Shown here one piece after another: positions 13,775 through 47,858 of a DNA stretch of 64,000 nucleotides. Origin of the DNA: an uncultured Candidatus Saccharibacteria bacterium (lineage in GTDB: Bacteria > Patescibacteriota > WWE3 > 2-01-FULL-39-13); assembly GCA_965230915.1 (NCBI GenBank), contig OZ246395.1, positions 339,535 through 403,534 of the forward strand, in the 5' to 3' direction. Every line of letters begins with the position of its first letter. Position 1 is the first letter of the stretch. The position numbers and the translations under genes are program-made. The notes under the pieces are model-generated. The model was not told the origin of the DNA, did not search any database, and was given only the letters and a program-made list of their open reading frames with translations.

Positions 13775-14944
13775 CTATATATCCTGGTCTTCTAGTTTTA
13801 TAATTCTATAACCTATTGAGCCTGTTCGCTGGATAGGTCTATTTAGCTGTTCTGTCCCTTCTACTTCTTCGAATTCTATTAGTTCTTCTTCTATTTCGAA
13901 TGCATCTTCTTGTAAGGTACCATTTTTAATTTGGTAGGTTGAAGAAGTAACTTGCCTTAGTAATGGGTTTGGCTCATCATTTGGGCTGGATATATTGGTA
14001 TATGTTTTTTGTGTTTTTGCCGAGAGTTCAAATGGTGTTCGATCTTCTGCTCCATATATAGACCAACCGTATTTGGCATTTTGTCCATAAAAATGATATT
14101 GAGTAATTGTATAACCGGTGTTTCTATCTATTACATGAATTGTTCCTATTTGTGTTGGAGAATCCCTTCGATCTGATTCAGATTCAGATATATATAGAAT
14201 ATATTTTTCATCTTCGGCTTCCGGAATTTGTATAGCTGGGAATTTACTTCCTAATAATCGACACCAATTTTTTGCAGAAAAAGGGACATAATTTATTCCG
14301 TTAACTTCTATAAATTCTGCATTCGTAAACGGAATATAATAAGCACATTCCTCAATTTCCTCATTTGTTGCGGGTCTAGCATGCCATGAACGTTCATGAA
14401 TTATCATTGGGACTCCACCTATTGTAGGAATTTCAAATGAATTTGTAATACATTCGAGTGTGGCAAAAGTTTCCGAATAATGAAAGACAGTTTTGAATGG
14501 CCTTTTTAATAAATATTTTTCGAAAGTATTAACAGTTGTGTATACACCATTAGAATCTGGATGAAATGGACGCCCTGTTATCGCGATGCCATATAGAGCA
14601 TCTTTATAAAAAGTTTCACGATAGTCTATTACTTGGTTTTGTAAGTCTTGTTCGTCAGAATATTCATCTTCTGAAAATAATTCCCGTTCTTCATCTTCAA
14701 CGTCCCATTTTAGTTCAGAATAAAAATCTGATGGATATTCATAGAAAATCGGAACGACACTTTGGTCTATAGCTGATTTTACTATGCCGCCTAAAATTTG
14801 AGAGCCAAAATTATAATTAGCTTCTTCAGGCTCTTTGTAATATCGATCAAGGGCTTCCGTATCTAAATGAATATAATTTGTAGATGGCTTAACGGTTGGG
14901 TCTGTTTCTTCTGAAGTAGTTTCTGGATTGTAAAATCTCAACAT
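13775..14944 (-). CDS. Hypothetical protein (389 aa, acidic, Tyr/Trp-rich)
   Basis: Long ORF immediately upstream of tsaC with a 12-nt gap; likely co-transcribed; no recognisable motif. Confidence 0.5.
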   Translation of the reverse strand: MLRFYNPETTSEETDPTVKPSTNYIHLDTEALDRYYKEPEEANYNFGSQILGGIVKSAIDQSVVPIFYEYPSDFYSELKWDVEDEERELFSEDEYSDEQDLQNQVIDYRETFYKDALYGIAITGRPFHPDSNGVYTTVNTFEKYLLKRPFKTVFHYSETFATLECITNSFEIPTIGGVPMIIHERSWHARPATNEEIEECAYYIPFTNAEFIEVNGINYVPFSAKNWCRLLGSKFPAIQIPEAEDEKYILYISESESDRRDSPTQIGTIHVIDRNTGYTITQYHFYGQNAKYGWSIYGAEDRTPFELSAKTQKTYTNISSPNDEPNPLLRQVTSSTYQIKNGTLQEDAFEIEEELIEFEEVEGTEQLNRPIQRTGSIGYRIIKLEDQDI

Positions 14945-15008: not shown

Positions 15009-15614
15009 TTAGATTTTATTGCCCGGCCTTAAAAACTTTAAGCCGAAATATATCACAACAATTAGTATTACTGCCCCTACCCCAATAATATATGGAAAGT
15101 AGTCGCTTGTAGTAATTGCTTCTGCTGGTTTTGGGCTTGTTATGCTTGACGCAATTTTATAAGTTGTGGGCGTTATATCGCTTCTAATCTGTGTTGCGTT
15201 TTCGTCTGTTAATGCAATTTTTCCATTTCCTTTTAGTGCAAAGTTTCCTTCTTTTAACGTTTTGAATTTTAGTGTGACTACATTATTATCACCGATCGCA
15301 AGTTTATCTTTTCCTAACATTGCCGCCGTTATTGTCACTGTATTAACAATCTTTGTAGGACCATTCACTAGTGTCCATCCGTCAGAAAGTTTTCCGTCTA
15401 TAAATTCCAAATTCTCAAATTCTATGTTCAATGTAAAAGCATTATAGGCATTAGAACTATTAATGTTTATTGGAACATTAATCTCGGTCTCTGAGGGATA
15501 ATCTTTTTGCTCTAAATTAATAGTAAATTGTGTAGCTGCTGCAAAAGCTGATTTTGCTAAGAATATTGTAAGTGTTACTGCGAAAATTATTGCGATTAGT
15601 TTTATTTTGTTCAT
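15009..15614 (-). CDS. Cohesin-domain protein with signal peptide and C-terminal TM anchor (putative membrane-bound scaffoldin)
   Basis: Signal peptide (LAKSAFA|A), a ~140-aa beta-sandwich region with cohesin-like alternating pattern (FTLNIEFENLEF..., VVTLKFKTLKEGNFALKG), Thr/Pro linker, then hydrophobic anchor YIIGVGAVILIVVIYFGL + RPGNK. Its start is 2 nt downstream of the dockerin-protein stop. Confidence 0.55.
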   Translation of the reverse strand: MNKIKLIAIIFAVTLTIFLAKSAFAAATQFTINLEQKDYPSETEINVPININSSNAYNAFTLNIEFENLEFIDGKLSDGWTLVNGPTKIVNTVTITAAMLGKDKLAIGDNNVVTLKFKTLKEGNFALKGNGKIALTDENATQIRSDITPTTYKIASSITSPKPAEAITTSDYFPYIIGVGAVILIVVIYFGLKFLRPGNKI

Positions 15615-15615
15615 A

Positions 15616-15786
15616 TTATTCCTCCCAGTTGCGAGCCAAAATACTTAAATCTGATAAGTCGATTATTCCATCTGCGTTAAGATCCCCATCGCTTCTTCCG
15701 GATATATTTTTTAACCAGTTATCCATAATAACTTGTAAATCTTTCATATCAAACTTATTATCACCTGTTATGTCTTTTGTTTTAAT
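15616..15786 (-). other. Dockerin type-I module (two ~22-aa Ca-binding repeat segments) at the C-terminus of the giant protein
   Basis: DxNxDGxxxxxDL pattern twice, each followed by a hydrophobic helix ending in W; position corresponds to residues ~2255-2310. Confidence 0.65.
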
Positions 15787-18700
15787 TTCTGTCATTTCGA
15801 GTACTGGTTCAGACGGTTCGGTTACAGGGGTATTTGTCTCACCAGATCTAGGTATATAAGGCGTAATTCCATCACCTGGAATGTCAGCCTCATTTTTTAC
15901 TTTAATATCATTATCTTTTACATATATTTCGGTATCATTTACGTCGATGTCATCATAACGTCCGTCTTCTGAATCTACTTCATATTTAATTTTAACTTTG
16001 TGGTCACCATCTACCGTGTTGTTATCGATTGCTTTTATCTTTACTTTTTTGGATTTTTCCCAGTCATCTGGCTCGATTTCTAAAGTGCTATCGTCAATGT
16101 CGATATACTTTCCATCATCATCTGCTGACAATTTTATTTTTACCTTTTCGGATGGTTGGTCAGAAAGTTCGACCTCGATTGTATCTGTATCTCCGCCTTC
16201 TTCTACTACTGTATCTCCGCCGGTTTCTGTTACTTGAATTTCGACATTTTCTTCTCTTTCATCATCTGTAATGGTTACAACTACATTTGAAATATCCAGA
16301 TCGTCGAAATCACTATCATCTGATTCACTTGAATGTGTAATGGTTGCTGTACGGTTACCTTGAAAATCATCATCGTCAATTCCTGTTACCGTAATACTTT
16401 GCGGTACGTTCCAATCGGATGCTGTAAATGTGAGTTCTGACTCGGAAATTGTAATTTCATCGCTGGTAGTAGCAATATTAATAGTTACATTCGCAGCTGG
16501 AATTGTATTGAGCGAGATTGTATAAATATCGGTTCCGCCGTGCTCATTTACGCTTGTTGATCCGTCGCTTTGAGAAAGTGTTACCCCAGGAACTTCATTG
16601 TCTTCGACAGATACAGTAATTGAGTTGATTGAAATTCCGTCATAGAAATTATCTGTACTTAGTGCTTCATGGTCTATGTTTTTTGATCGTGTTCCATCGA
16701 TAATTAAGTTGTCTACAGCGCTTACAGTTATTGTTTGCGGCGTATTCCAATTTGAAATCGTGAATGTTAATGATGTGGGATTTACTGTTACTCCGCTATC
16801 CGGATCCGGATTTATTATGACTGTATTAGTTGGCTGAGTATTTAATACAACAGTATATGTATCGGTTGTTCCATCTTCATTTACTGTTGTTGATCCTGAA
16901 CTTTGAGACAAAGTTACTCCAGCTGTGTCGTTGTCGGTAACAGTAAAATCGACGCCGGGAATATCGAAATCATTGTAAGAAAGATCTGAACTTGAAACTG
17001 CAAATGATACTGTTCTGGAATGTGATCCTTCGGCAACATTATCGTCTGTTGCAGTGACAGTGACTGTTTGCGCAACATTCCAATTTGAATTTGTGAATGT
17101 TAATGTGCTCGATGATGTGCCCTGTTTGTATGCAGTCGCCTCTGATGTTGCCATTGAAATCGTTACATCTGATGATGGTTGTGTGTCTAGTACAACAGTA
17201 AATGTGTCAGTTGTTCCTGATTCAGAAATTGCTGTGTCTCCGCCAGTTTCAGTTACAGTTATTCCGGATGTATCGTCATCAGTTACGAGTACCGTTACAT
17301 TTGATGTTTTGCCGCTATAGTTTGTATCAGAACTTGATGATGTATGTGTTAGTACATTCGAATAATTTCCCGTGGCAACTGAGTCGTTGTTTGCAGTTAC
17401 TGTAACTGTTTGGGGTGTGTCCCAATTACCTGTTGTAAATGAGAGAGATGTTTTATCAAGATCAACGCTATCATTGCCTGTTATATTTACAGTTACATCA
17501 GAAGTCGGTTGTGATGTTAATACTACTGTATATGAATCAGATGTTTCACCTGCTTCTGCTACTTCTGTTGAGCCGCTACTTTGCGAAATTGAAATTGCGG
17601 CAGTGTCATTATCACTTATATTTACAATAACCTGTCCGATTGTTAACCCGTTAAATGCTCCATCACTTGAAGTTGATGTGTGAGTAAGAGTAGCTTGGTG
17701 CGCACCTTCTGCAATTGAATCATTAAGGGCCGTTATAGTAACTGTTTGTGGAGTATCCCAGTTTAAATCGGTAAATGTAACCGATGGTGCGGATAAACTT
17801 ACTTGTCCACCAGTTCCAGCAATATTTACTGTTACATCTGCGGATGGTTGATTGTCTAAAACAATTGTGTATGAATCGGTTGCCCCGCCTTCTGTTACAT
17901 TTGTGGAACCACCGCTTTGAGTGATTGTTATACCAGGTGTTTCATCTTCGGTAATACTTACCGAAACAGTCGAGATTGAAATTCCATCATAGTTGTCATC
18001 GCTACTTGTTGCAGTATGTGTAATATCTACTGAACCATTCCCAATATAGTTTGAATCATTTGTTGCAATTACAGTGACAGTCTGAGGAGTATCCCAATTT
18101 GAAGTTGTGAATGTTAACGACGACGCACTTAATTGCAGTCTGCTTGTAGTTGATAAATCTACTGTTACATCTGCTGATGGTTGTGAATCTAAAACTATAG
18201 TATAAGTATCAGTCGCTCCACCTTCTGTTACGGCTGTTGTTCCACCTGACTGAGTAACTGTTATTCCAGCTGTATCGTTATCGGTAATATCTACGATTAT
18301 GTCACTAATATTTAGTACGCTATATTTTGTATCGCTACTTGTGATTTCAAAGCTTATATCTCCGGTATGTGACCCTTCTTGAACTTCATCGTCGATAGCT
18401 GTTACCACAATTGTCTGTGGTGTGTCCCAATTGCTTGCTGTGAAAAGAATGTCTGGTACGATTGGGTTTTCTTCATCGGGCGTTAGCGGATCTTGATTTA
18501 AAGCTGTAACTTGTAATGAGCTTAAATCAACACTGACAGATGATGTTGGTTCGGACGCTAAAACAATTGTGAATGTGTCTGTAGTTCCTCCTTCTGTTAC
18601 GTCAGTTCCACCACCCGATTCTGAAATATTTATGTCGGCCGTGTCATTATCTGTAACAGCTGTTGTAACTGAATCGACAGAAATTGCATTGTAGTTTGAA

Positions 18701-21700
18701 TCAGAGCTCGTAGCGGTATGAGTAATAATTGAGTCTTCCGAGTCTTCATCTATATCATCGTTTACGGCCGTAACTGTTACTGTTTGTGCGCTACTCCAAT
18801 CTGAATTTGTGAAAGTTAAAGTACTTTTATCTAGTGAAACTTCTGAGTCATGATCAATAGCAACAGTCACATCGTTTGTTGGTTGTGATGTAAGCACAAC
18901 TGTATATGAATCAGTAGATCCACCTTCTGTTACGGCTGTTGTACCGCTTGATTGTGTAACTGTTATACCAGCTGTATCGTTATCGGTTACTGTTGCTGTT
19001 ATAGATCCGATTGAAATATTGTTGTAATTTCCGTCAGAGCTCGCCGCCGTATGATTTATTGTTCCACTATGTGTTCCTTCGACTATCGAGTCATTTACAC
19101 CAGTAATAGTAACTGTTTGTGGTGTGCTCCAATTTGATGTTGTAAATGTAAGTGTTGGATTATCTACACTGACTTGTGAATCTGGAGAAACCGTAATCGT
19201 AACATCGGATGTTGGTAATGTTGAAAGAGCAATTGTGTACGAATCGGTTGCTCCACCTTCTGTTACATTTGTTGAGCCAGAACTTTCTGAAACTGAAACG
19301 CCGGCAGAATCATTATCAGTGATTTTTACAGTTTTTGTGGGGAACGAAAGTCCATTATATTTAGCATCGGAGCTTGTTGCCGTATGTGTAATTATTCCGT
19401 TGTGTGCACCTTCGGCTGTTAAATCGTCGATTGCTGTTGCAGTAATCTGTTTATTTGAATTCCAGTCTGAAGATGTAAAAGTCAAACTTGTCGGTGAAAC
19501 TTGTACTTGGGAATCTCCGCTTATGCTGACAGTAACATCAGATGTTGGCTGCGTATTTAATCTAATTGTATAAGTTGCAGTTGCGCCGCCTTCTGTAGCG
19601 TTAATTGATGTCGATGGTGTAATACTTCGTCCGGCTGTGTCGTTGTCTGTAATCGTGTATGTATAAATTACGTTTGATCCTAAAGTACCATTTGTCGGAC
19701 TTGAAAGTGTAACAATTATAGTTTCGTCATCTTCATCGATTTGATCATTAACAATTGTTACTGGAATTGTAGTTGTTGTGTTTCCAGCTGTAACAGTTGC
19801 GGTTCCACTTGCGAGCGTGTAATCTGTTCCGCTTCCAGATGCTGTGCCACCTGTTACGGCGTAGTTAACTGAAACATTTTGTGATGTTGCTGTCGAAATT
19901 GAAATTGGCAAACTAACAGAGGTTGTTGCTTCATCTCCACTTGCTGCAGTTGAAGTAAATTGAATACTTGGAATTGCTGCCGTTGCAAAGTCAGTACTTG
20001 TTTCAGTGTTTCCTCCAAATGGAACCCATGCGGAAGTGTTTCCTAACGAGTCTACAACTCGGGCTTGCCAATGATAATTTAATCCAACTGTTAGACCAGT
20101 CACACTAATTGTAGGATTTGCTTCAGATCCGGAAGTTGCCACAGGTACACTTGAAAAGTTTGCCGTTCCCGTAAATGCAGTTGTTGTCGGCTGAACTTCA
20201 GCCTGAAGAGTTAGGGTATCAGGATTATCTGCGTCATTTACTGTTGAGCCTATACACATCGCTGTTCCGTTTACAAAACCGCCAATATTTAAGGCAGATG
20301 TACAGTTAGTTTGATATTGTGCAGTCAAACTAATTGCAGGTGTCGACATGCTCTTAATAGAAACATCGTCGTAAGTCAAAGTAATTGGAGCTGAACATGT
20401 TGAAGATATAAAAGATCGAATTCCTGATGCGCCGGAATTTTGTAAGTTTGATTCTGAGTCGGTTGTAGTTAAGTCCCAAGATGTAGGTTCGGTTGTTCCA
20501 TCTTGCCATACTTTCATTCTTATTGTTGTAGGACTTGTTCCGTATGTTTGAACTCTTAGTTTATAAAAAGTATCTGCAGTAAAAGTTTCACGAGATACGG
20601 TTGTGTCTGCCGAAATTGTTGTAAGTGAAGTTGAACCGAGCAATTTTCCTGCTAGTAGTTTTAAACTTGTACCTGAAAACTGAAGTCGGTGTCTATATTC
20701 CCAATTAGTAAGTGAAGCTTGCTTTCGACTAACTACATATATAGTTTGTGTTTCATTTGTTATTGGAGCTTTATTCGATTTAACTTTAAATGTCATATCG
20801 CTATTTAATACATCCAGTCCGTCTAGCCTTTCTTGATTAGTTGTATTACAGCTTCCATGAACAGACAAACCTTGTGTTCCATTTATAGAATGCGATCCTC
20901 CTGACCCCGATTGAGCAGTTGTCCATGTTTGGCTTCCGGTTTCTGTTGTTCCCCATCCCGATGCCGCAGTTCTTGTGAATGTATCTGCAACATATGTAGT
21001 TCCGTTAAATGGAACGCTGGACACAACATTTTCGAATGATCCGATATCCATAGTTGTATTTTGTGGTATTGAGGTTCCGTCAGAGTCTTCATTCATGAAC
21101 GAATAAGCGAGCATTTCAGAATCATTAGAACCTATATCAATTGCCGGGCTTCCCGATTGTAATCTGAAGTTTCCATTCGCGGCGTCAACGAAAAGCGGAT
21201 CAACTTTTTGTGAGGTTCCATCGATTGTATAGTTTTGTGTAAATTGAGATGGAAATGGCGATCCGTCACCATCCCAGAAAATGTTATTTGTTTCTATAGG
21301 AGTCTGCCCAGTTCCAACGTATATTGCTTTAGTTCGTGCCCAAATAATATTATTCCGCATTATCAAAACATCTGTGTCGCATCCGCTACAACTTATTCCC
21401 TGTGAATCGTTCGTGCTTGATGAGTAATATGTGTTGTTGTATAAGCGAACTCCGAGAGTCGGTCCGAATGTAATGTTTTTACCATGAATAACAATAAATC
21501 TTGCTTTATCCTGGTCAGTAGATACTACGTTATAAGCGAAAACAATATCTTCGCTATTAAAATCCAGATCGTCAGTTTTTCCACCAATTTCTGAAAAAAC
21601 TCTATTCCCAATCGAAACATTGTGGTGAATAACATTTCTTTTCGCGTCATAAACTTCAATTGCATTACTTTCGATCATTCCGGATTCGGGCGGACAATTT

Positions 21701-22548
21701 GCTTTATTGTCCTTCATGAAATTGTAGGCAACTATATTGTCATTACCTTTTATATCGATTGCTTTAGCTCCATTTAGTGATTGTTGAGGAACAATATCGT
21801 TAGCAGCTGCAGTATTTTCTGAAATATCATTATATATAATAGTAAGATGATGAGGAGTTACACTCGCATCTGCTTCATTCACTTGAACATTTATCCCTCT
21901 AGAAAATTGCGTAATGGTGCTGTTTTGAATAGTAATATGGTGAGATGTTGTACCAACTTTTACTCCGTAAAAATATCCGAATGCCATGTCAGGGCAAAGT
22001 GTAAATCCCCCTTCTGCTTCAGTACCATGCGGCAACGTTGACTGGTCTGCCGTTAGTTTTAGATTCTCGATAGTAATGTAAGTTCCAATAACTTCGATGG
22101 CCGTGCTTGTATCAGGGTAATCTAGCCAGAGAATTGGTTGAGCGCCTGTTCCATATGCCCCAATTGTAATTGGACTTTCACTAGTTCCAGTCCAATCTGC
22201 TTTAATATTGTATCCGGTAAAATTGCACCCTCTATTTAAGTATAAATTCTCACCAGCAGATAAATTTACTTGTGTGCCATCTGCACCTCTACCAGTAAAA
22301 CGCTTTAAAGTTTTATATGGAGTTCCTGAAGTTCCATCGCCATTATCGTTTGCAGCATTACAATCAACATAGTAATCCCTTGCAAATGCCGAAGCCGGTT
22401 TTACTAAAGTGAAAAATACAAAAATAAGTGGAAGAATAAAAAAAAGAATCCGAAGATTCTTTGTCGGTGCATCGCCCGCAGTGTAATTCAAGAAACCATT
22501 AAGATTATTCCGAGCATGTGGACGGAAGGGCATTTTTACAAATAACAA
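15616..22548 (-). CDS. Giant (2310 aa) secreted multidomain protein: right-handed beta-helix (pectin-lyase fold) + lectin-like middle region + ~11 tandem Ig/Calx-beta-like repeats + acidic stretch + C-terminal dockerin
   Basis: Signal/TM peptide at the N-terminus; beta-helix-type repeats with NxxI/NN ladders in residues ~60-520; tandem ~105-aa repeats with consensus DNDTAGITVTQSGGTTAVTEGGATDSYTIVL.SQP..DVTV...LTFT.SNW.TPQTVTVTA.ND; two dockerin type-I Ca-binding segments at the C-terminus (DITGDNKFDMKDLQVIMDNW and DLNADGIIDLSDLSILARNW). Confidence 0.85.
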   Translation of the reverse strand: MLFVKMPFRPHARNNLNGFLNYTAGDAPTKNLRILFFILPLIFVFFTLVKPASAFARDYYVDCNAANDNGDGTSGTPYKTLKRFTGRGADGTQVNLSAGENLYLNRGCNFTGYNIKADWTGTSESPITIGAYGTGAQPILWLDYPDTSTAIEVIGTYITIENLKLTADQSTLPHGTEAEGGFTLCPDMAFGYFYGVKVGTTSHHITIQNSTITQFSRGINVQVNEADASVTPHHLTIIYNDISENTAAANDIVPQQSLNGAKAIDIKGNDNIVAYNFMKDNKANCPPESGMIESNAIEVYDAKRNVIHHNVSIGNRVFSEIGGKTDDLDFNSEDIVFAYNVVSTDQDKARFIVIHGKNITFGPTLGVRLYNNTYYSSSTNDSQGISCSGCDTDVLIMRNNIIWARTKAIYVGTGQTPIETNNIFWDGDGSPFPSQFTQNYTIDGTSQKVDPLFVDAANGNFRLQSGSPAIDIGSNDSEMLAYSFMNEDSDGTSIPQNTTMDIGSFENVVSSVPFNGTTYVADTFTRTAASGWGTTETGSQTWTTAQSGSGGSHSINGTQGLSVHGSCNTTNQERLDGLDVLNSDMTFKVKSNKAPITNETQTIYVVSRKQASLTNWEYRHRLQFSGTSLKLLAGKLLGSTSLTTISADTTVSRETFTADTFYKLRVQTYGTSPTTIRMKVWQDGTTEPTSWDLTTTDSESNLQNSGASGIRSFISSTCSAPITLTYDDVSIKSMSTPAISLTAQYQTNCTSALNIGGFVNGTAMCIGSTVNDADNPDTLTLQAEVQPTTTAFTGTANFSSVPVATSGSEANPTISVTGLTVGLNYHWQARVVDSLGNTSAWVPFGGNTETSTDFATAAIPSIQFTSTAASGDEATTSVSLPISISTATSQNVSVNYAVTGGTASGSGTDYTLASGTATVTAGNTTTTIPVTIVNDQIDEDDETIIVTLSSPTNGTLGSNVIYTYTITDNDTAGRSITPSTSINATEGGATATYTIRLNTQPTSDVTVSISGDSQVQVSPTSLTFTSSDWNSNKQITATAIDDLTAEGAHNGIITHTATSSDAKYNGLSFPTKTVKITDNDSAGVSVSESSGSTNVTEGGATDSYTIALSTLPTSDVTITVSPDSQVSVDNPTLTFTTSNWSTPQTVTITGVNDSIVEGTHSGTINHTAASSDGNYNNISIGSITATVTDNDTAGITVTQSSGTTAVTEGGSTDSYTVVLTSQPTNDVTVAIDHDSEVSLDKSTLTFTNSDWSSAQTVTVTAVNDDIDEDSEDSIITHTATSSDSNYNAISVDSVTTAVTDNDTADINISESGGGTDVTEGGTTDTFTIVLASEPTSSVSVDLSSLQVTALNQDPLTPDEENPIVPDILFTASNWDTPQTIVVTAIDDEVQEGSHTGDISFEITSSDTKYSVLNISDIIVDITDNDTAGITVTQSGGTTAVTEGGATDTYTIVLDSQPSADVTVDLSTTSRLQLSASSLTFTTSNWDTPQTVTVIATNDSNYIGNGSVDITHTATSSDDNYDGISISTVSVSITEDETPGITITQSGGSTNVTEGGATDSYTIVLDNQPSADVTVNIAGTGGQVSLSAPSVTFTDLNWDTPQTVTITALNDSIAEGAHQATLTHTSTSSDGAFNGLTIGQVIVNISDNDTAAISISQSSGSTEVAEAGETSDSYTVVLTSQPTSDVTVNITGNDSVDLDKTSLSFTTGNWDTPQTVTVTANNDSVATGNYSNVLTHTSSSSDTNYSGKTSNVTVLVTDDDTSGITVTETGGDTAISESGTTDTFTVVLDTQPSSDVTISMATSEATAYKQGTSSSTLTFTNSNWNVAQTVTVTATDDNVAEGSHSRTVSFAVSSSDLSYNDFDIPGVDFTVTDNDTAGVTLSQSSGSTTVNEDGTTDTYTVVLNTQPTNTVIINPDPDSGVTVNPTSLTFTISNWNTPQTITVSAVDNLIIDGTRSKNIDHEALSTDNFYDGISINSITVSVEDNEVPGVTLSQSDGSTSVNEHGGTDIYTISLNTIPAANVTINIATTSDEITISESELTFTASDWNVPQSITVTGIDDDDFQGNRTATITHSSESDDSDFDDLDISNVVVTITDDEREENVEIQVTETGGDTVVEEGGDTDTIEVELSDQPSEKVKIKLSADDDGKYIDIDDSTLEIEPDDWEKSKKVKIKAIDNNTVDGDHKVKIKYEVDSEDGRYDDIDVNDTEIYVKDNDIKVKNEADIPGDGITPYIPRSGETNTPVTEPSEPVLEMTEIKTKDITGDNKFDMKDLQVIMDNWLKNISGRSDGDLNADGIIDLSDLSILARNWEE
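16400..19950 (-). repeat. In-frame tandem coding repeats (~315-330 nt units, ~11 copies) encoding Ig-like/Calx-beta-like domains
   Basis: Protein-level periodicity of ~105 aa with conserved VTEGG.TD.YT..L...P..DVTV...LTFT..NW..PQTVTV core; copies are divergent at the nucleotide level. Confidence 0.7.
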
Positions 22549-22695: not shown

Positions 22696-23127
22696 ATGGA
22701 TTTAAAGTCTACCTCCCTTTTTATTGTGCTTTCGTTGTTAACAGGAATATTAATAGTTGCAAGCCTAACACTTGGGATATTTCCGCTAGCCTTTATTGTG
22801 GTTGTATACCTTTGTTTCGCCGGTTTTTATATTAATCATAAAAATACTAAAGAAACTTCATTAAGATATTTCGCATACTGCATTTTGCCAATATTGCCTA
22901 TTTATTTAACTCGATTATTCGCTATGACTTCAGAAGATTATGGTTTATATAAGTTAGTAATAGATTTTCTGATTTGCCTACCCTATTCTATTGCCGCATT
23001 TGTAATTGGAATTATCCTTATGGCAAGAAGCGCTTTTATGAAAAATAATTTATTCACAGCTTATAATTTAATTTTTTCTTTTGCGTTGTCCGCGATTATT
23101 TATATTTCATTGGTTCGGAATTGGTAA
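22696..23127 (+). CDS. Hypothetical 4-TM membrane protein
   Basis: 143 aa, hydrophobic; the only + strand gene between the giant-protein gene and the ABC operon. Confidence 0.4.
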   Translation: MDLKSTSLFIVLSLLTGILIVASLTLGIFPLAFIVVVYLCFAGFYINHKNTKETSLRYFAYCILPILPIYLTRLFAMTSEDYGLYKLVIDFLICLPYSIAAFVIGIILMARSAFMKNNLFTAYNLIFSFALSAIIYISLVRNW

Positions 23128-23129
23128 GG

Positions 23130-24350
23130 CTACTCATATCTTAACGCCTCAATCGGCTGCAATTTCGACGCCTTTTGTGCTGGGTACCATCCGAAAATTA
23201 TTCCGATTAAACACGAGACTCCTGCTGATAATAAAATTGCATTTGGCGCGAATACAAATGACAGGTTCATTAACTTGGTGATTCCGTAAGATGCTCCTAC
23301 CCCGATTAAGATTCCGATTATTCCTCCTGTTATAGTTAGCACAACTGCCTCGACTAAAAACTGTGTAACGATTGTTCGGCGTTTTGCTCCGAGGGCTTTT
23401 CTAAGGCCTATTTCCATTGTTCGCTCGGTGACGGTTACTAGCATTATATTCATGATTCCAATTCCTCCTACTATTAAAGAGATTGCGGCGATTCCAGCTA
23501 ACAATGATGTGAAGGTTCCGGTTACTTCGCTGATTGTGTCGAGTAAATCTTCTTGTGAAGAGATTGAAAAATCGGCATCGTCTGGAGTATCTAGATTATG
23601 GCGCTCTAGTAAAAAGAAACCGATTTGGTTTTGTGCAGCTTCCATTACGTTTTCGTCTTTTGCAGTTACATAAATTGTCGAAACGTAATCGACTCCGAAT
23701 AATATATTTTGTGCAGTTGAAAGTGGAATGTAAACGGCTTCGCTTGAACTTCCGAATCCAGAAACTTCTTCGGAGATTCCAACGATGTCATAAGTGCTGC
23801 CTTCGATTTTTATTTGTGCCCCAACGCCTGTGCTGGAATTTCCGAATAATTCGGTTGCAACATCGGGAGTTATAACTGCAACTTTTCTTGTAGATAAAAT
23901 GTCGTCGGTTGTAATTGGGGATCCAATTGTTACTTCTATATTTCGTAAATCAAAATAATTTTCACTGACTCCAATTACAGTTGCGTTCATGTTTGCATCT
24001 TCGTATGCTAGCTGCCCCCTCGAAGAATATTCTGATGCAACTTTATCGATTGTTGTTATTCGATCTTCTGTCGCGATGGCTTCGGCGTCTTGTAAAGTTA
24101 ATGTAGTTCCGCTTCCTGATTGTCCGCCAAGAAAGCCGCCACCGCTACTTGCACCTGGTCTAATAGTTAATAAGTTTGCTCCTAAAGATTGTATTTGAGA
24201 TTTGATGCTTTCCTGGCTTGCTTGTCCAAGAGACATTAATGCAATAACTGATCCGACACCAATAATTATTCCGAGTGCAGAAAGTGCTGTTCGCAGTTTG
24301 TTTGTTGTTAAGACTGATATGGATTCCTCAAAAATTTCTATTAAGTTCAT
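23130..24350 (-). CDS. macB: ABC transporter permease, MacB/FtsX family (large periplasmic domain)
   Basis: N-terminal TM, ~220-aa periplasmic domain, three C-terminal TM helices with the FtsX fold; start overlaps the ATPase stop (4 nt). Confidence 0.85.
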   Translation of the reverse strand: MNLIEIFEESISVLTTNKLRTALSALGIIIGVGSVIALMSLGQASQESIKSQIQSLGANLLTIRPGASSGGGFLGGQSGSGTTLTLQDAEAIATEDRITTIDKVASEYSSRGQLAYEDANMNATVIGVSENYFDLRNIEVTIGSPITTDDILSTRKVAVITPDVATELFGNSSTGVGAQIKIEGSTYDIVGISEEVSGFGSSSEAVYIPLSTAQNILFGVDYVSTIYVTAKDENVMEAAQNQIGFFLLERHNLDTPDDADFSISSQEDLLDTISEVTGTFTSLLAGIAAISLIVGGIGIMNIMLVTVTERTMEIGLRKALGAKRRTIVTQFLVEAVVLTITGGIIGILIGVGASYGITKLMNLSFVFAPNAILLSAGVSCLIGIIFGWYPAQKASKLQPIEALRYE

Positions 24351-25033
24351 TTTTTGCCCTTCCCTTTCGTGTCGCTGACGAGTTTGCCGTCAACAAGTTT
24401 TATAACTCGGTTCGCACGTTGTGCGATTTCATCATTGTGAGTAATTACTATAATAGTATGTCCCTTTTTGTTTAGGTCCTTAAAGATGTCGATTATTTCA
24501 TCGCTTTGATTTGTAGGAAGGTTTCCGGTTGGTTCATCGGCTAATAATATAGATGGTTCCATTGTTAGAGCGCGGGCGATAGCGACTCTTTGTTTTTGAC
24601 CTCCGGAAAGTTCATTAGGTCTATTTGAAAGTTTATTTCCAAGTCCGACAACATTTAAATATTTCTGTGCACGTTCCAATCTTTCAGATTTAGAGAGTCC
24701 ACCATAAGCCATTGGCAACGAAACATTTTTTAATGCGGATGTTCTTGGTAATAAGTTGTATGACTGAAAAATAAATCCAATTTCTTTGTTTCGAATTTCA
24801 GCGAGTTCGTCGTCGCTTAAATTTTCTACGTTTTGATTATTTAAAATATATTGTCCGCTAGATGGAACATCGAGAGCTCCGAGTATATGCATGAGTGTAG
24901 ATTTACCAGAACCAGATGGGCCGATTATCGCGACAAATTCTCCTTTATCAATTTTAAAGTTGATATCAGATAAAGCGTGAGTCGTAACGTCTCCGTTTAC
25001 GTAAGTTTTAGTGATGTGTTTTACTTCGATCAT
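24347..25033 (-). CDS. ABC transporter ATP-binding protein (MacB/LolD-type)
   Basis: Walker A GPSGSGKST, signature LSGGQKQRVAIARAL, Walker B ILLADEPTGNL, H-loop ITHN. Confidence 0.9.
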   Translation of the reverse strand: MIEVKHITKTYVNGDVTTHALSDINFKIDKGEFVAIIGPSGSGKSTLMHILGALDVPSSGQYILNNQNVENLSDDELAEIRNKEIGFIFQSYNLLPRTSALKNVSLPMAYGGLSKSERLERAQKYLNVVGLGNKLSNRPNELSGGQKQRVAIARALTMEPSILLADEPTGNLPTNQSDEIIDIFKDLNKKGHTIIVITHNDEIAQRANRVIKLVDGKLVSDTKGKGKK

Positions 25034-25034
25034 G

Positions 25035-26264
25035 TTATTGTCTAACTCTTACTGCTCCGCCTGTTCCGAATGTGCCGATACGAACATTGTTTTGTGTGTT
25101 TGTATTCGTAAAGCCACTCGTCGAAAACGCCGTTACAATAACTTCATCGCCTTCATTTACCCCACTAATAATTTCTGTGTTATCATCGCCGATTAAGCCA
25201 GTTTGAACTTCGACTTTTCCATTTAAAGTTGTTACATAGGATTTGCCATCTCTATCTTTTGTAACTGCACTTGATGGAACCGAAACCACATCAGCTTTTT
25301 CTTCGACAATTATTTCGGCATCAACGCTCATGTTTGGTAAAACGTTTGGAGAATCGTTTTCGAATTGAATTATTACCGGATAATTCGAAACTCCATTTGA
25401 TGACTCGCCTATTCTGTCGATTCCGACAACAGTTCCTGTGAAAGTTTCATCTTTAATACTGCTCATAGTTAAGTTAACTTTTTGCCCGACTTTTATTTTA
25501 TTTATATCGACTTCGGTTATGTTTACAGTTGCAAGTGGAGTTCCCTCTTGTTTAATTGATGCGACAGTTTGAATTGATTTTTCGGATACAGAGTTTTCAA
25601 CTTTCATACCTGCGACTGCTACGATGTTTGCGACTGTTCCGCTAGCCGGAGCTGTAATTATCGGAGATTGCGATTGGTAATTTATTGATGATGAACTTAA
25701 CGATAATTGTTGTTGCGAAATATTTTTGGCTTGTAAATCGTATGATTGTTTCGCAGAAACATATTCTGCATATGCAGTATCGTATTCTAATTTTTCTGCA
25801 TCGGTTTGATAGCTCGTTCGTTTTTTAACTTCATCAAGTTTCGCTTCTTTTTGCTTTAATGTGTTTTGAAGATTTACGAGTTGATTCTTAGCTTCTTGAA
25901 GTTGAATTTGCGATCCGGTGTAACTTGCGAGTGAACTTGTTTGGCTCGCCTCCCCTTCGTTGTCTAGTGTTACTTCCATTAATTTCTGACCTTCGGTAAC
26001 TGTGTCACCTTCTTTTACAAAAACTTCTTTGATGATTCCATTTACTGAAGTTGTTACCGCTAGATAGTTAGCAGTTGCGATTGTTCCCGATGCTGCGATT
26101 GTGGACTTAACTGTTCCACGTTCAGCAGTTCTGGTAAGAGTTGGAAGTTCTGATGTAGATGAATTACTCATGGAATTTTTATAGTAGAAGTAGCTTACGC
26201 CGCCGACTACTATAAGGATTGCAGGAATGATCCATTTATAGTTAGTTTTTAAATATTTTTTCAT
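25035..26264 (-). CDS. macA: Periplasmic adaptor subunit, HlyD/MacA family
   Basis: N-terminal TM anchor, long coiled-coil (QLQEAKNQLVNLQNTLKQKEAKLDE...), beta-barrel/lipoyl-like segments; translationally coupled to the ABC ATPase. Confidence 0.8.
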   Translation of the reverse strand: MKKYLKTNYKWIIPAILIVVGGVSYFYYKNSMSNSSTSELPTLTRTAERGTVKSTIAASGTIATANYLAVTTSVNGIIKEVFVKEGDTVTEGQKLMEVTLDNEGEASQTSSLASYTGSQIQLQEAKNQLVNLQNTLKQKEAKLDEVKKRTSYQTDAEKLEYDTAYAEYVSAKQSYDLQAKNISQQQLSLSSSSINYQSQSPIITAPASGTVANIVAVAGMKVENSVSEKSIQTVASIKQEGTPLATVNITEVDINKIKVGQKVNLTMSSIKDETFTGTVVGIDRIGESSNGVSNYPVIIQFENDSPNVLPNMSVDAEIIVEEKADVVSVPSSAVTKDRDGKSYVTTLNGKVEVQTGLIGDDNTEIISGVNEGDEVIVTAFSTSGFTNTNTQNNVRIGTFGTGGAVRVRQ

Positions 26265-26309: not shown

Positions 26310-26819
26310 TTAATTTGTGAATTCTTGTATGAGCTTACTCAATAATTCTATTCTACTTTTCTCAGCCTCCAACAAATGTAATGGAAAGTGTTGTTCATAC
26401 TTATGGTGGATTAATTTGTCTTTTTTGGATAAAAATTGTGTATGGAATACTTTTTTGCACATATCGCTACTGTATCCACTGATATTATGCCCGAGGATTG
26501 TTAATAGAAGCCCTTCTAGACAGGGTGATGAGAAATAAACGCGGAAATCATACTGCTTGATTTTAGCTTGGTATTTTTCTGAAATAGGCATATCAGAGTC
26601 AAGCAGAATAAACTTTTCGTTGAAATCAAACGCCTTTACTTGCCTTATCGCGTGGTCTATTACACTATGTGGTCCTCCACCACCTCCGTTTGTTATTACT
26701 ATTCTAGTTTCATTTTTTTTCGCATATTTGCTATTGATATACCGCATTAAAGCTTCTTCCGTCGGACCTTCTCCATAAGCAAGTTTAGTTTTAAGTATTG
26801 GGCGGATGAATCGTCTCAT
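26310..26819 (-). CDS. RloB/DUF4276-like small protein (TOPRIM-like) - partner of the AAA_21 ATPase
   Basis: 169 aa; N-terminal LAYGEGPTEEALMRYI resembles the (V/C)EG.TE motif of RloB/DUF4276; C-terminal SSPCLEGLLLTILGH resembles the NPcFE.WlLlH motif of RloB; starts 3 nt after the ATPase stop. Confidence 0.5.
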   Translation of the reverse strand: MRRFIRPILKTKLAYGEGPTEEALMRYINSKYAKKNETRIVITNGGGGGPHSVIDHAIRQVKAFDFNEKFILLDSDMPISEKYQAKIKQYDFRVYFSSPCLEGLLLTILGHNISGYSSDMCKKVFHTQFLSKKDKLIHHKYEQHFPLHLLEAEKSRIELLSKLIQEFTN

Positions 26820-26822
26820 ATT

Positions 26823-28034
26823 CTATATATTAGGTAGTCCTCCGTACGCTCCAGAGAAGTACTTAGCATGTAAATTTTCGTCCGGTCTTATTCCCTTAAT
26901 ACTATCAAGTCGCCATACGATGCTGCTTCCTTTTCTATCCTCCTTTTCCACCATTAATATTTGATATTTATCGAGTTTATTGAATATGTGGTACTGATGT
27001 GTTGTGAATATGAACTGGGCATTATTCTCGTTTATATCTTTAGATGTAAATAGATTTATCAGTTCATTTACCATATTAGGGTGCAGAACATTGTCAAATT
27101 CATCTATGATGGCAACGCTACCTTTCTTGATTGCTACTAGCATTATTTTCAGCAAATGTATTAACCGTCTTGTACCGCTAGATTCTAGTTCATACGGTAT
27201 TATAAATTCATTTTTTAGGAATTTATGAAATCCAAATGCGCTATATTTCGCATTGGATTTTTTATTTTTTTGTTTTTCGTCATCTTCAGTAAATGTGAGT
27301 AAGTCGTGCATACCAATATCATATTTTTTCAAGAGGTCAATGATAACCAGCTTTATTGCTTTGTTTTCTTCAAGGAATTCAATTAGGCTATTTTCATTAT
27401 CGTCTGCAGATTTTCTTTCATGAAGGATATCAGTGTAAGCTATGCTGCAATAAATCGAATGCCAATAATCAAATATGTCGCTTATGTATTTGTTGTTAGA
27501 TTTCTCAACAACAGATAAAAATGAAGCATTTGGGGGCACTAGTTCCCTAAATTTAGCGACTGAGGACAATTCTTCTGAAAATTTATATACATAATTATTA
27601 CTTTTAAATTCTCTTTGGAATAAAGATGCATATCGATTCGTTTTATGGTTCCATATTTTTAGTGACTCTGACTCAATTATATTTTTATTTAGAGTAAGAC
27701 TATACTTAAAGACATTCTTTTGTGTCTCAAAGGTTACTGACAAGTCTGTAGGTTTACGATTATCAGGTAGTCCGAAGGTCACGAAAGGCATGTACCTAGA
27801 TTTATTTTGGCTAAATGATTCTGTTAGAACCCATTTTATGAAGGGAATTACTCTTAGGGCATTCGTTTTCCCGGTCGCATTAGCTCCAGTTATGGCGAGA
27901 ACCTTAGTTATTCGTCCATTATTTCTAGACTTTATATATGATTCTGAGAGAGGGGCTTTGTTATTAACCTCTAAATCAACCGTAGCTTCCTTAAGAAAGG
28001 AGTAGAAGTTTTTAAAAGTATAATTATGGATCAT
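26823..28034 (-). CDS. AAA_21-family ATPase (AbiLi / RloA / PD-T4-4 A-type)
   Basis: Walker A ITGANATGKTN near the N-terminus, long insertion, then ABC-signature-like ESSGTRRL, Walker B SVAIIDEFDNVLHP and H-loop FTTHQ near the C-terminus: the split ABC-like NTPase layout of PF13304 proteins. Confidence 0.8.
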   Translation of the reverse strand: MIHNYTFKNFYSFLKEATVDLEVNNKAPLSESYIKSRNNGRITKVLAITGANATGKTNALRVIPFIKWVLTESFSQNKSRYMPFVTFGLPDNRKPTDLSVTFETQKNVFKYSLTLNKNIIESESLKIWNHKTNRYASLFQREFKSNNYVYKFSEELSSVAKFRELVPPNASFLSVVEKSNNKYISDIFDYWHSIYCSIAYTDILHERKSADDNENSLIEFLEENKAIKLVIIDLLKKYDIGMHDLLTFTEDDEKQKNKKSNAKYSAFGFHKFLKNEFIIPYELESSGTRRLIHLLKIMLVAIKKGSVAIIDEFDNVLHPNMVNELINLFTSKDINENNAQFIFTTHQYHIFNKLDKYQILMVEKEDRKGSSIVWRLDSIKGIRPDENLHAKYFSGAYGGLPNI

Positions 28035-39299: not shown

Positions 39300-42200
39300 C
39301 TATTTTAGGAATCCGAACATTTCTTCCAAGTTCTTCACAATCAAATCAACAACACTTTCGCGTGGTTGTGGTGTTAAAAGTGTGTAATTTTGTGATTCTC
39401 CAGTATTGCCGCCGGTATCGGTTGATTGAATTTTGTAACTGTAAACTTTTCCTGATGAAAATACGGATGAAATAACAATATGTTCGCGGCGCAACGCCGT
39501 ATCTTCTGGAACAGATAATCTTAATTCACCATTTGAGCGAACTCCTTCATCATAAATAATTTTTGATGTAGCTGGTTTATTTGTTTTCCATGAAATAATC
39601 GTTTGAACTTGCTCTACTTTTCCAGGAACCAACGATGTGGTTACGCGAACATCAGAAATTATCGGTGGAGAACTATTTAGTACAGTCGCAAAAGTTACAA
39701 TTGATGATTCCGTTTCATTCCCATTTTCATCAATAGATACAACTTGTGCACTGTAATTTGTAGAAGGAGTTAATTCTTCCGTTGTATAAGAGTGGCCAGT
39801 TATAAAACTGTCATTGGTATCAGTTTGGGCCTGGCCAGTTGTCGTGTCCGTAATAATAATTCGGCTTCTTGTTGGAATGGTCGTGTTCCATGCCAAAGTT
39901 GCTCCACTCTCATTTACGCTTCGAATTTCTATCGAGTCAATATCTGCCGTTTGCGAAGTTGTTGTGAAAATATTATCTGCCGAAGCTGACATTGGGCCAA
40001 AACTTCCCTTTGATCTGCTTTGAATATGGTATGTTGTTTCAGGTTGTAAACCTTCAACTACAACTGTATGTTCAGTCACTGATGCGCTGGAATCTCCAAC
40101 TTCAATTACATATGGATTTGCGGAATCCGAATTGTATTCGGATTCTTTTACATAAGCGACCATCGAATTTGAGGGACGATTTGTAACCCATGATACCGTT
40201 GCAGTTGTTGCTCCGGGTTCAATTGTTAAGTTTGACCCTCCAATTGTCGGACCTGAAAATGTGCTTGATGTAATTTCTAAAAGATAATCGCTTAATGTGT
40301 CATCCGATATATCTTCTAAATTCGGATTGTTTGCTAAAGCTTCAAGTATAGCCTCTAAAAGTGACTGGTCAGCATCTTCGATTATTGATGATATTCCATC
40401 TTCAATTTGTTCTTCTAATGTAGGTTCACCTTCACTGGAATCAACGGTTGTTACATCATTCGTTGTGAAATCCGATACAGCATTTTCTGATTCGTTATTC
40501 GAGCGATCTTTTGATTTAACTTTGTAATAATATTTTGTATTTGCAGTTAATCCCGTCAGACTTATTGAATGATATGTTGTGTAAATATCCGCAATTTCTG
40601 TGGTTTGTCCAAGTGAACTCGAAGTGCCCCACTCTACTGTGCTATTTGCATCTTCGTCAGTTGACCATGTAATAGTTGCACCCTTTTCTCCAGTTAGTGC
40701 AACAACTACATTCGAAATGACCGGGTCTTCATTGTCGATTGTCGTCGATAAGAAATAATATTGAACCGATCCGTTTACGATATTTTTGTCTTCGGTTGTG
40801 TTATCGCTTCCATCTTTGGATCTTACGTAAAAATAATAATCTGTACCAACCTCCAGTCCCGTAATTGTTACCGAATGATTTTGTGTTAAGTCATCTGATC
40901 CGGCAGTTGTTGTCGGACTAGATAGATCGGCATTTTCTGAATAAACGACATAGGATGTTGAATCAATATTTGTTTTCCATGTAATAGTTGCTTGAGTATC
41001 AAAAATTTCCGTTACCGAAACATTAGTAATTTGTGGGCCGGCAGCAGTTGTAAATTGATATGTATTATTTGATGAACTTGCAATATTGTCTGATGCATCT
41101 GTTGACTCGGTTAAAAATGAATAAGTTGTACTCGAATTTAATCCGCTCAAAATTACACTGTGACTTGTTGCCATTGAAGGGTTCCCTTGTGATGAATCGT
41201 AGTCTGAACGGTTGCTTCCTGGATAACTGTTTGTCGCTTCAAAGTATACATTTGAATTTGAAAACTTATTTGTTGTCCAGGTAATTGTGGCTGTTGTTGC
41301 AGTGACGTTGCCTATCGAAACGCCGCTAATTGTAGGAGAAGATAAATCTGTGCCACCATCGCCGTTTGGTATATCTGTAATTACTGAAGAGTATGCTGAT
41401 ATATTATCGTTAGCGTCGATCGATCTTATTTTATACCTATATTCGATTGTCTCATCTAAATTAGTATCAACATAATAATTAGTTAGCCTATTAGTTATAG
41501 TTGTTAAAAGAGAATAAGATCCTCCATTTTCACTTCTATATATTTCATATGATTCGAAGGCGATAGAAGTTGAATCAATTACTCCCCATGCTAAAAATTC
41601 TCTCCAATCTTCTAGAGCTGGGTTCGATACATCTTGATAAAAAACATTTGACGGAATTCCAGGAATTATTGCAGTCTGTATGGTTGTTGTATTACTAAGT
41701 GGATCAATACACTGGGCGTAAACTGTCATCCCTGGTGAATAAGTTACACCGGCCGCGGCAAAAGTATATGAGCTTGAATAAGATCTCCAACTAGCACCAG
41801 ATAAATCTGATGCGGTTCCAATTTTTACTTCTACACCTGATTCATCACTACATGGAACATAAATGAGCGGAGTCGCAAGTGAAGCATCTATTCTAAAATT
41901 ACCTGAAAAGTCCGGGTCGTTTACATCGATTGGTACCAGTTCAGTCTCATCGCTTCCGGTCATAGATGAAGATGCTCCATCGTTTGAAAAAACCTTTAAT
42001 AAAATTCCAGCAAGATGATAAAAGCCATCAATATCATCTTTAGCATTCCATACAAGCGATTTGCCAGTTCCATTTGCAATCGATGATCCGACATTGCCCG
42101 TTACCGATTCTGCTACTCGCCATACATCTGTACCTGATAGATGGGAAGTATTTATCGTATTGTTTACCCCGCGTGTTATGCCTGACAACGTGCTACCGAC

Positions 42201-46655: not shown

Positions 46656-47858
46656 TTACTTATACCTTAAGGCTTCTAGCGCATTCAGCTTACCCGCCTT
46701 TTGGGCCGGCAAGATTCCTGATAAAAACCCTACTCCTCCAGAAAATAAAATAACGAAGAAGATAAACCACAACGGTGTGTAAAAAATACTGATTGGTTTT
46801 CCCCCAAGTGCACTGGCTAAAATATTTAGTCCAACGGTAAAGATAAAACCTCCAATATAGCCAAGAATAATTCCTACAAATCCCCCCAAGAAACCAATGA
46901 CGGTTGATTCGATTAAGAAAATTTTCTTAATATCCCATGAAGATGCACCAATTGCGCGCATAATTCCGATCTCATTTATTCTTTCTAGCAACGATATAGT
47001 CATTGTATTAACAAGACCGATTGCTGCGACAAAAAGTGAGAAAATACCAAAAACTCCTAAAATTGACTGGATTACCCAGAAAATTTGATTAGCTTGCTCA
47101 ACAACATCTGATAATGCCGATACAAGATATCCTTTTGCAATTACTTCTTCCCGAACACTCTCTATTTGATTTTGAGCGGCTGCTTGGATTTTTATAAACT
47201 GGTAATCATTAAATTGAAGATTTGCGGCGTCAGAATAACGCATAAATACTTGGTTTGTGCTCTCTAATGAGTCGATTATGCCAATTATTTCAAATTCTTG
47301 ATCTAGGTTTATAACATCAACTGCATTAGCCCCTGTTTCATCAACTTTTGGCATATATAAACTTAGTTTAAGCTTTTTACCGATAATTTCACCGACCGGA
47401 ATTCCAAATAAATCGGCTACTGTTGGGCTTACAACTAAGGCATTCTTCTTCTCATCTTTGAAATTTTCGCCCGTTGTAACTTCAAGTCCTGCAAGTCTAA
47501 AAAAATTGCTATCAACAACATTAACACTGGTTTCAGAAACCAGGTCGTTCATCGTAATTTGGCCCGGAACAACTGCTTGTGGGCTTACAGCCTTAATATT
47601 TTCAATTTCACTTAAGCTTTTCACAGCATTATTATCAAGTTTGATAGTTTCTGTATCTGGTGGATAAACATCGAGTGTCAAAATTGAATCAGCTGTAGTA
47701 ATTCTTTCCAGGATTGTTTTTTGTAATCCATATCCTAATGAAACCAAGAAAATAATAACTCCAATTGCGACTGCGACACCTAAGACTGTCAAAATAACGC
47801 GTGACTTACGGTTTTTAAAGCTTTGGAATGAAAAGCTCAGAAGGTCATCGATTCGCAT
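46656..47858 (-). CDS. ABC transporter permease, MacB/FtsX family
   Basis: TM1 (VILTVLGVAVAIGVIIFLVSLG), ~230-aa periplasmic domain, three C-terminal TMs. The track ORF (to 47906) starts at TTG and overlaps the ATPase by 62 nt; the internal ATG (MRIDDLL, 47858) gives a 14-nt overlap. Confidence 0.8.
   Translation of the reverse strand: MRIDDLLSFSFQSFKNRKSRVILTVLGVAVAIGVIIFLVSLGYGLQKTILERITTADSILTLDVYPPDTETIKLDNNAVKSLSEIENIKAVSPQAVVPGQITMNDLVSETSVNVVDSNFFRLAGLEVTTGENFKDEKKNALVVSPTVADLFGIPVGEIIGKKLKLSLYMPKVDETGANAVDVINLDQEFEIIGIIDSLESTNQVFMRYSDAANLQFNDYQFIKIQAAAQNQIESVREEVIAKGYLVSALSDVVEQANQIFWVIQSILGVFGIFSLFVAAIGLVNTMTISLLERINEIGIMRAIGASSWDIKKIFLIESTVIGFLGGFVGIILGYIGGFIFTVGLNILASALGGKPISIFYTPLWFIFFVILFSGGVGFLSGILPAQKAGKLNALEALRYK

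Follow-up and report, generated by a model that had tools for sequence, protein, structure and literature searches.

OlpA and OlpC of Clostridium thermocellum and ScaE of Ruminococcus flavefaciens are anchored by S-layer homology (SLH) domains or sortase and are part of multi-enzyme cellulosome systems. In each, a single cell-bound cohesin directly captures a dockerin protein (structures 3ul4 and 4dh2 for OlpA/OlpC; 2zf9 for ScaE). A similar arrangement is predicted here for two adjacent genes within a 64,000-nucleotide stretch of contig OZ246395.1 (assembly GCA_965230915.1, positions 339,535 to 403,534 of the forward strand; hereafter the window) from an uncultured Candidatus Saccharibacteria bacterium. 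One codes for a giant surface protein of 2310 amino acids (aa) that ends in a dockerin module, the other for a 201-aa protein with a single cohesin-fold domain. The pair differs from OlpA/OlpC and ScaE in the predicted plain C-terminal transmembrane (TM) anchor of the small protein and in its cargo, a single stalked giant whose gene lies directly upstream.

Related arrangements also occur outside cellulosomes. The cohesins of Clostridium perfringens are internal modules of large secreted glycosidases rather than membrane anchors, and typical fibrillar adhesins are held by covalent sortase anchoring or by a secretion-system retention module. The giant is similar to fibrillar adhesins in that many ~110-aa beta-sandwich repeats in a row separate its anchoring end from its functional head, but the anchor proposed for it is a non-covalent C-terminal dockerin-cohesin plug. 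Structurally, the small protein is closest to non-cellulosomal cohesins, namely those of the C. perfringens glycosidases (toxin/glycosidase complexes with cohesins 2vo8, 2jh2, 2w1n and 2o4e, and the FIVAR-dockerin 2jnk/2ozn) and that of Archaeoglobus fulgidus (2xdh). The A. fulgidus cohesin and dockerin are a functional pair that has found use in surface display (PMC9705933; PMC12484212).

Among candidate phyla radiation (CPR) genomes, SR1 RAAC1 and OD1 RAAC4 are reported to carry genes described as dockerin-like or as 'cellulosome anchoring' (Kantor et al. 2013, PMC3812714), and the dockerin-domain envelope protein SEML1_0315 is reported as essential in the saccharibacterium Southlakia epibionticum (PMC10633639). 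These organisms belong to the same super-phylum as the source of the window, and dockerin envelope proteins are read there as glycan-targeting or adhesive; the passages of the two reports that concern these genes stay at the level of annotation and do not describe a cohesin partner, a gene pairing or a family analysis. Because cohesin-dockerin pairs outside cellulosomes are already known, the principle is not new. What the present locus adds is a divergent cohesin clade that is invisible to annotation, a strictly conserved pairing with two classes of cargo, and a probable CPR host.

The dockerin of the giant and the cohesin-fold protein beside it

The two genes likely specify a non-cellulosomal, operon-encoded cohesin-dockerin module that anchors the C-terminus of the giant to the membrane and projects a glycan-active head. 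The comparative context for their partnership is strong, and their direct binding is a prediction. Family hidden Markov models (HMMs) run on the six-frame open reading frames (ORFs) of the 64-kb window detect a single cohesin-like and a single dockerin module, which adjoin each other. Coordinates of the genes and their features are collected in Table 1.

The giant ends in DITGDNKFDMKDLQVIMDNW ... DLNADGIIDLSDLSILARNW, which is organized as two tandem ~22-residue segments, each with a 12-residue EF-hand-like Ca loop and a predicted helix after it; the loops start at residues 2259 and 2289, an offset of 30 residues. Pfam Dockerin_1 (PF00404; threshold 22.9 bits), which had been proposed as a check on this module, scores the last 67 aa alone at 26.2 bits (E=9e-6, two stretches), whereas the whole giant stays under the threshold (13.9 bits, E=0.063); the dockerins of three relatives pass it on whole or partial proteins (L084, 26.5 bits; L094, 27.6 bits; L095, 28.4 bits). 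A phmmer search of the module against Protein Data Bank (PDB) sequences places dockerins at the top (2y3n_B, 4fl4_A, 2jnk), with troponin-C EF-hands ranking after them at weak E-values only. When the module is aligned with seven dockerins that adjoin relatives of the small protein (n=8), D is invariant at loop positions 1 and 12 of both segments (8/8), and the profile of these eight matches solved dockerins end to end (profile positions 3–51) at E=2.4e-10 to 2.7e-7. The residues after the loop starts differ between the segments, with MK in the first and LS in the second at positions 10–11, and MD and AR, respectively, at positions 17–18. In the light of general knowledge of dockerins, these sequence differences suggest that the module has one binding mode and not a dual one.

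The case for the small protein comes from its relatives and from its fold. An exhaustive phmmer search of 1.84 billion representative sequences with the 201-aa protein recovered 25 relatives. One of these (P0003; 36% identity, same 200-aa architecture) scores 26.2 bits with Pfam Cohesin and so lies over the threshold, and the query also matches three multi-cohesin proteins directly (P0018, P0020 and P0021; E=1.9e-7 to 3.7e-6), the first of which contains five Pfam cohesin stretches (E=1.7e-56). An AlphaFold2 (AF2) model built with 20 relatives has a mean predicted local distance difference test score (pLDDT) of 89.1, with block means of 94–98 over residues 31–150, and contains a signal-peptide helix, beta-sandwich strands between residues 28 and 155, a low-confidence linker and a C-terminal helix. 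Its domain has the flattened nine-stranded beta-sandwich (jelly-roll) fold of solved cohesins. Foldseek gives its best E-values to the cohesins 2jh2, 2xdh and 6kgf, with 2vo8 at rank 13 having the highest target-normalised TM-score (TMt, 0.81); the OlpA/OlpC and ScaE structures are among the matches, and a few non-cohesin beta-sandwiches are found near the top (e.g. 9ifr, rank 4). Sequence identity to the C. perfringens and A. fulgidus cohesin-dockerin structures is only 9–19%. The homology of the relatives together with the fold model settles the question and supports the small protein as a divergent cohesin.

This assignment is readily missed. Neither the cohesin nor the dockerin module passes a threshold in whole-protein Pfam and NCBIfam scans, and it is the scans of isolated domains that are informative. 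A word-indexed homology search with the 201-aa query returns only the protein itself, and with the family profile only two proteins; the precomputed Pfam field of family members is empty or weak, and nearly all relatives examined are without a Cohesin assignment at threshold.

The first-pass annotation of this DNA had given the small protein a signal peptide, a cohesin-like beta-sandwich and a C-terminal TM anchor, and both the sequence and the AF2 model agree. Given the basic tail after the helix and the lack of LPXTG before it, the helix is read as a plain TM anchor. A helix ending in W had been noted after each dockerin segment, and in both a stretch ending in NW follows the loop. The intergenic distance had been given as 2 nt and is in fact 1 nt: the junction reads ...TGG GAG GAA TAA T ATG, with a single spacer base at 15615, and the Shine-Dalgarno sequence of the cohesin gene lies within the last codons of the giant. 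Translationally coupled genes classically have this layout, and the two are probably co-translated. A promoter and terminator consensus scan around the pair found sites not in excess of those in shuffled sequence, and is therefore uninformative on the transcription unit.

Conserved pairing in related loci

Related loci were taken as the DNA around relatives of the small protein, from the contigs encoding them and from one metagenome scan with an alignment of the long form described below (7 loci). The six-frame ORFs of each locus were searched with the cohesin-like family HMM and a dockerin HMM, the latter built without seven of the loci. Each of the 12 informative loci, which comprise the window and 11 metagenomic contigs, has a single cohesin-like and a single dockerin module, the two lying within 3 kb of each other on one strand. 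In nine of the 12, the gene directly before the cohesin gene encodes a protein that ends in the dockerin. L087 and L093 have ~600–700 nt between the two genes, and in L087 this gap holds a small gene on the opposite strand. L085 has its dockerin gene two genes downstream of the cohesin gene. Only L090 and L091 have no dockerin; their short contigs break off 93 and 230 nt before the cohesin gene on its upstream side, so these two loci are uninformative.

The cargo falls into two classes. Short-form cohesins (190–205 aa; the window, L003 and L084) are situated behind Calx-beta giants that are 41–50% identical to the giant of the window. Long-form relatives (~400 aa) have an extra domain before the TM helix, and in all eight long-form loci with a dockerin neighbour (L086–L089 and L092–L095) this neighbour is an upstream S8 subtilase that carries Big_13 domains as well as a dockerin; several of these dockerins pass the Pfam threshold. 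The cargo type thus co-varies with the cohesin clade. A plug-and-socket system would be expected to show just this, a constant dockerin with variable cargo beside an anchor of cohesin fold.

Some members of the family depart from these two layouts. The dockerin partner of P0013 (206 aa; L085 10001–10621) is likewise an S8 subtilase. P0013 itself ends in LPNTG, a hydrophobic stretch and KKYK, which is a sortase sorting signal and not a plain TM anchor, so that the type of anchor varies within the family; a sortase gene is located 1 kb upstream (L085 8112–8909). In P0025 (430 aa), an N-terminal TM segment is followed by two cohesin-like domains, a Pro/Thr linker and, at the C-terminus, a dockerin of its own; this layout is like that of an adaptor scaffoldin and hints at assemblies beyond 1:1 in some organisms. 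The second extracellular domain of the long forms, between the cohesin and the TM helix, has a conserved motif (SSTHPDQNKWY ... YFHIKAKN..GWG) and is without a Pfam assignment.

A scan of GTDB-representative genomes with a 3-sequence alignment gave 75 pattern matches and no relative, so the species of the window seems to be absent there. The same 3-sequence alignment found nothing in a metagenome scan.

Architecture of the giant protein and its genomic context

Translation of the giant may begin at a TTG or at an ATG five codons further on, the two choices being equally plausible. The N-terminus has a long n-region followed by a hydrophobic core that runs up to ASA/FA, a putative Sec signal peptide as judged from these residues.

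Table 1. Features of the dockerin giant and the cohesin-fold protein, in order of transcription (window coordinates)
Feature	Coordinates	Strand	Details
Giant surface-protein gene	15616..22548	-	2310 aa from TTG 22548; alternative ATG 22533; stop TAA 15616-15618
N-terminal region with putative signal peptide	22381..22548	-	residues 1-56; core LRILFFILPLIFVFFTLV; motif ASA/FA at residues 52-56; read from sequence
Right-handed parallel beta-helix head	21016..22389	-	residues 54-511; AF2 and Foldseek
Two domains between head and stalk	19972..21015	-	residues 512-859
Canonical Calx-beta domain	19642..19971	-	residues 860-969; Pfam PF03160
Eleven further ~111-aa Calx-beta-like repeats (stalk)	15910..19641	-	residues 970-2213; periodicity
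C-terminal dockerin module	15622..15780	-	residues 2257-2309; Dockerin_1, family HMM, solved-dockerin matches
Ca loop 1, DITGDNKFDMKD	15739..15774	-	D at positions 1, 5, 9 and 12; T at 3; N at 6
Ca loop 2, DLNADGIIDLSD	15649..15684	-	canonical D1 N3 D5 G6 D9 D12
Shine-Dalgarno GGGAGG of the cohesin gene	15621..15626	-	within the last codons of the giant (W-E-E), 6 nt before ATG
Cohesin-anchor gene	15009..15614	-	201 aa; ATG at 15612-15614
Signal peptide of the cohesin protein	15540..15614	-	residues 1-25; cleavage between AFA and AA; AF2 helix residues 3-19
Cohesin-fold beta-sandwich domain	15147..15536	-	residues 27-156
C-terminal TM helix	15033..15095	-	residues 174-194, then basic tail KFLRPGNKI; no LPXTG

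The AF2 model of the head (residues 54–511), from an alignment of 32 homologues, is a right-handed parallel beta-helix (pLDDT 89.3; predicted TM-score, pTM, 0.92). Its best Foldseek matches are GH136 lacto-N-biosidases (7v6i, E=1.5e-13), and it also matches the PL9 enzyme Pel9A (1ru4, E=4.5e-9), PL6, rhamnogalacturonan, alginate and chondroitin lyases, and phage tailspikes. The pectate-lyase fold initially suggested for the giant therefore holds at the level of fold but not as a family or activity: identity to the solved structures is 11–17%, with TM-scores of 0.4–0.66, and at this identity the head is given no enzyme family or activity. NCBIfam choice_anch_Q matches residues 456–506, and the Pfam families on homologues of the head are PF13229/PF05048/PF17161.

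The two domains that follow the head (residues 512–859) are without a match in a Pfam scan. Pfam PF03160, applied to the whole giant, scores 61.7 bits (E=8.9e-17; threshold 27 bits) over three stretches, the best of which is the canonical Calx-beta domain. The eleven repeats after it are divergent copies recognised by their periodicity, giving 12 in total; their borders are T[DE][ND][DE] motifs spaced 110–123 residues apart, and this region is 41–48% identical to a partial orthologue in L084. A ~40-residue linker after residue 2213 leads to the C-terminal end, TKDITGDNKFDMKDLQVIMDNWLKNISGRSDGDLNADGIIDLSDLSILARNWEE.

The window has a guanine-cytosine (GC) content of 32–44%, and no tRNA, rRNA or Rfam family was found in its 64 kb. 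Its BipA/TypA is 85% identical to that of one metagenome-assembled genome labelled Saccharibacteria and 67–70% identical to those of candidate division WWE3 genomes, including the complete 878-kb RAAC2_WWE3_1; the source is probably a Patescibacteria/CPR organism close to WWE3.

Upstream of the dockerin giant and on the same strand are genes for an HlyD-like protein (25035–26264), an ATP-binding cassette (ABC) ATPase (24347–25033) and a MacB/FtsX permease (23130–24350), with an opposite-strand ORF for a 143-aa membrane protein (22696–23127) between the permease and the giant. A second giant ORF (39300–46640, minus strand; 2446 aa) has an N-terminal TM segment and long Gly/Ser/Thr-rich repeats with the look of a beta-helix or beta-solenoid, while FN3 and purple-acid-phosphatase-N-like domains lie towards its C-terminus. 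It is directly preceded by genes for an ABC ATPase (47845–49203) and an FtsX permease (46656–47906). As a candidate second dockerin protein it was ruled out, no dockerin being found in it by family HMMs or domain scans. Both giants are thus located just downstream of MacB-type ABC exporter genes on the same strand, which may reflect a link to export or processing.

Directly downstream of the cohesin gene is an ORF (13775–14944, minus strand) for an acidic 389-aa protein without a signal peptide and without a Pfam or NCBIfam match. It was considered as a third component and rejected: it occupies the same position in L001, which is from the same organism, and is not beside the pair in L003. Further away (26310–28034, minus strand), an AAA_21 ATPase gene (26823–28034) is followed by one for an RloB-like protein (26310–26819), an arrangement that recalls OLD/AbiL-type anti-phage pairs.

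Alternative explanations and the proposed anchoring mechanism

Several observations weigh against an anchoring role for the pair. Pfam Cohesin (PF00963) does not match the whole 201-aa protein and gives its domain alone 19.7 bits (E=0.001), under the 24.1-bit threshold. The first-pass annotation had named the failure of a cohesin model to match 15009..15614 as one half of what would refute the pair and, taken literally, the result nearly amounts to this, although the sub-threshold match covers almost the full profile (positions 4–136 of 139). Among PDB sequences, no solved cohesin is found by phmmer with the 201-aa protein or by hmmsearch with the family profile; as both miss them by sequence, the small protein is placed in a divergent cohesin clade, and comparison of folds was needed. 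The same scores would suit a generic Ig or jelly-roll membrane protein (pilin-, CLIPPER- or YcnI-like) with a role in export, folding or maturation or as some other receptor, and CLIPPER (9ifr), YcnI, pilins and TRAP subunits are indeed also among the fold matches; set beside the relatives that do carry Pfam cohesins and the cohesins that lead the fold comparison, we regard this as improbable. On the side of the giant, both dockerin segments had been called canonical. Segment 2 is an exact DxNxDGxxxxxDL with all Ca-coordinating D/N present, whereas segment 1 has T for N at position 3 and N for G at position 6; at the calcium positions singled out for comparison (1, 3, 5 and 12), loop 2 is thus complete and loop 1 retains D1, D5 and D12. 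T at position 3 of loop 1 is also present in relatives (L086 and L087), and the closest orthologue (L003) has a canonical DLDSDG loop with D3 and G6. The double EF-hand tail might then be a Ca2+-dependent stabiliser or a binder of another ligand (wall polymer or S-layer) instead of a cohesin ligand, a reading that fits the non-canonical loop 1 and the weak E-value matches of single loops to troponin C and other EF-hand proteins. It is very improbable, because the duplicated 22-residue architecture with its 30-residue offset matches Dockerin_1 and solved dockerins from end to end, and the module always lies beside a cohesin-fold gene.

Two further points concern the geometry and the partners. 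The 17-residue linker puts the cohesin at the membrane surface, so that in this model the stalk would have to cross a wall or S-layer, and the survey covered 64 kb of a ~945-kb genome, elsewhere in which the true partners of either module, cohesins or dockerins, could be encoded. Both modules might accordingly be genuine and yet not be mutual partners, the dockerin binding a cohesin elsewhere or on another cell, the small cohesin displaying other proteins, and their adjacency reflecting co-regulation. Cohesin-dockerin specificity is unreadable from sequence, and P0025, with two cohesin-like domains and its own dockerin, implies that networks beyond 1:1 exist. We nonetheless consider this explanation unlikely, since a single cohesin gene and a single dockerin gene stay together in every one of the 12 informative loci, cargo type and cohesin clade vary in step, and in the window the junction has a translational coupling signal and no further module is present.

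The docking pair described by the first-pass annotation, an adjacent dockerin giant and membrane-anchored cohesin, is thus supported by the dockerin sequence, by transitive homology and by synteny in 12 of 12 loci. Its description as cellulosome-style is apt only as an analogy. One cohesin and one dockerin are found in the 64 kb and likewise in each related locus, which leaves no multi-cohesin scaffoldin, and Pfam and NCBIfam scans find no carbohydrate-binding module (CBM) or cellulase family in the pair. On these grounds, and with an S8 protease as the cargo of the sister clade, the pair is not a cellulosome.

As an anchoring module, the pair would work as follows. Both proteins would be exported through Sec, as their signal peptides suggest. 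After cleavage, the 201-aa protein would be held in the cytoplasmic membrane by its C-terminal TM helix, with its single cohesin domain on the outer face, ~17 residues from the bilayer. The dockerin, in which a predicted helix follows each of the two EF-hand-like Ca2+ loops, would plug into this cohesin in a Ca2+-dependent manner, attaching the giant non-covalently by its C-terminus. By analogy with fibrillar adhesins, the 12 Calx-beta/Ig-like repeats could form a stalk of tens of nanometres that carries the two middle domains and the beta-helix head through and beyond the envelope, where the head, judging by its fold, may act by binding or cleavage on a glycan of a host cell or of a polymer. 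Translational coupling may help to match the amounts of plug and socket.

Routine annotation leaves the socket, a divergent cohesin, as 'hypothetical'. Its position side by side with the plug, kept across divergent relatives with two classes of cargo, makes this a clean, small and testable pair. In Patescibacteria and WWE3-like organisms the attachment of large surface proteins and the contact with hosts are poorly understood. If binding is confirmed, the pair would explain how a stalked, glycan-active protein of 2300 aa is retained on such a cell, and the family profile would provide a search handle with which to look for receptors of further dockerin proteins in these lineages. More tentatively, this annotation-missed cohesin clade might serve Patescibacteria and similar bacteria with small genomes as a general, operon-encoded socket for surface display, a possibility that we put forward as speculative. 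Single cohesins anchored by the membrane or by sortase would then hold a host-interaction arsenal that includes giant stalked glycan-active adhesins and S8 proteases. In that case, a general socket of this kind would be the missing receptor for the dockerin envelope proteins of epibiotic CPR bacteria, among them SEML1_0315, which is described as essential.

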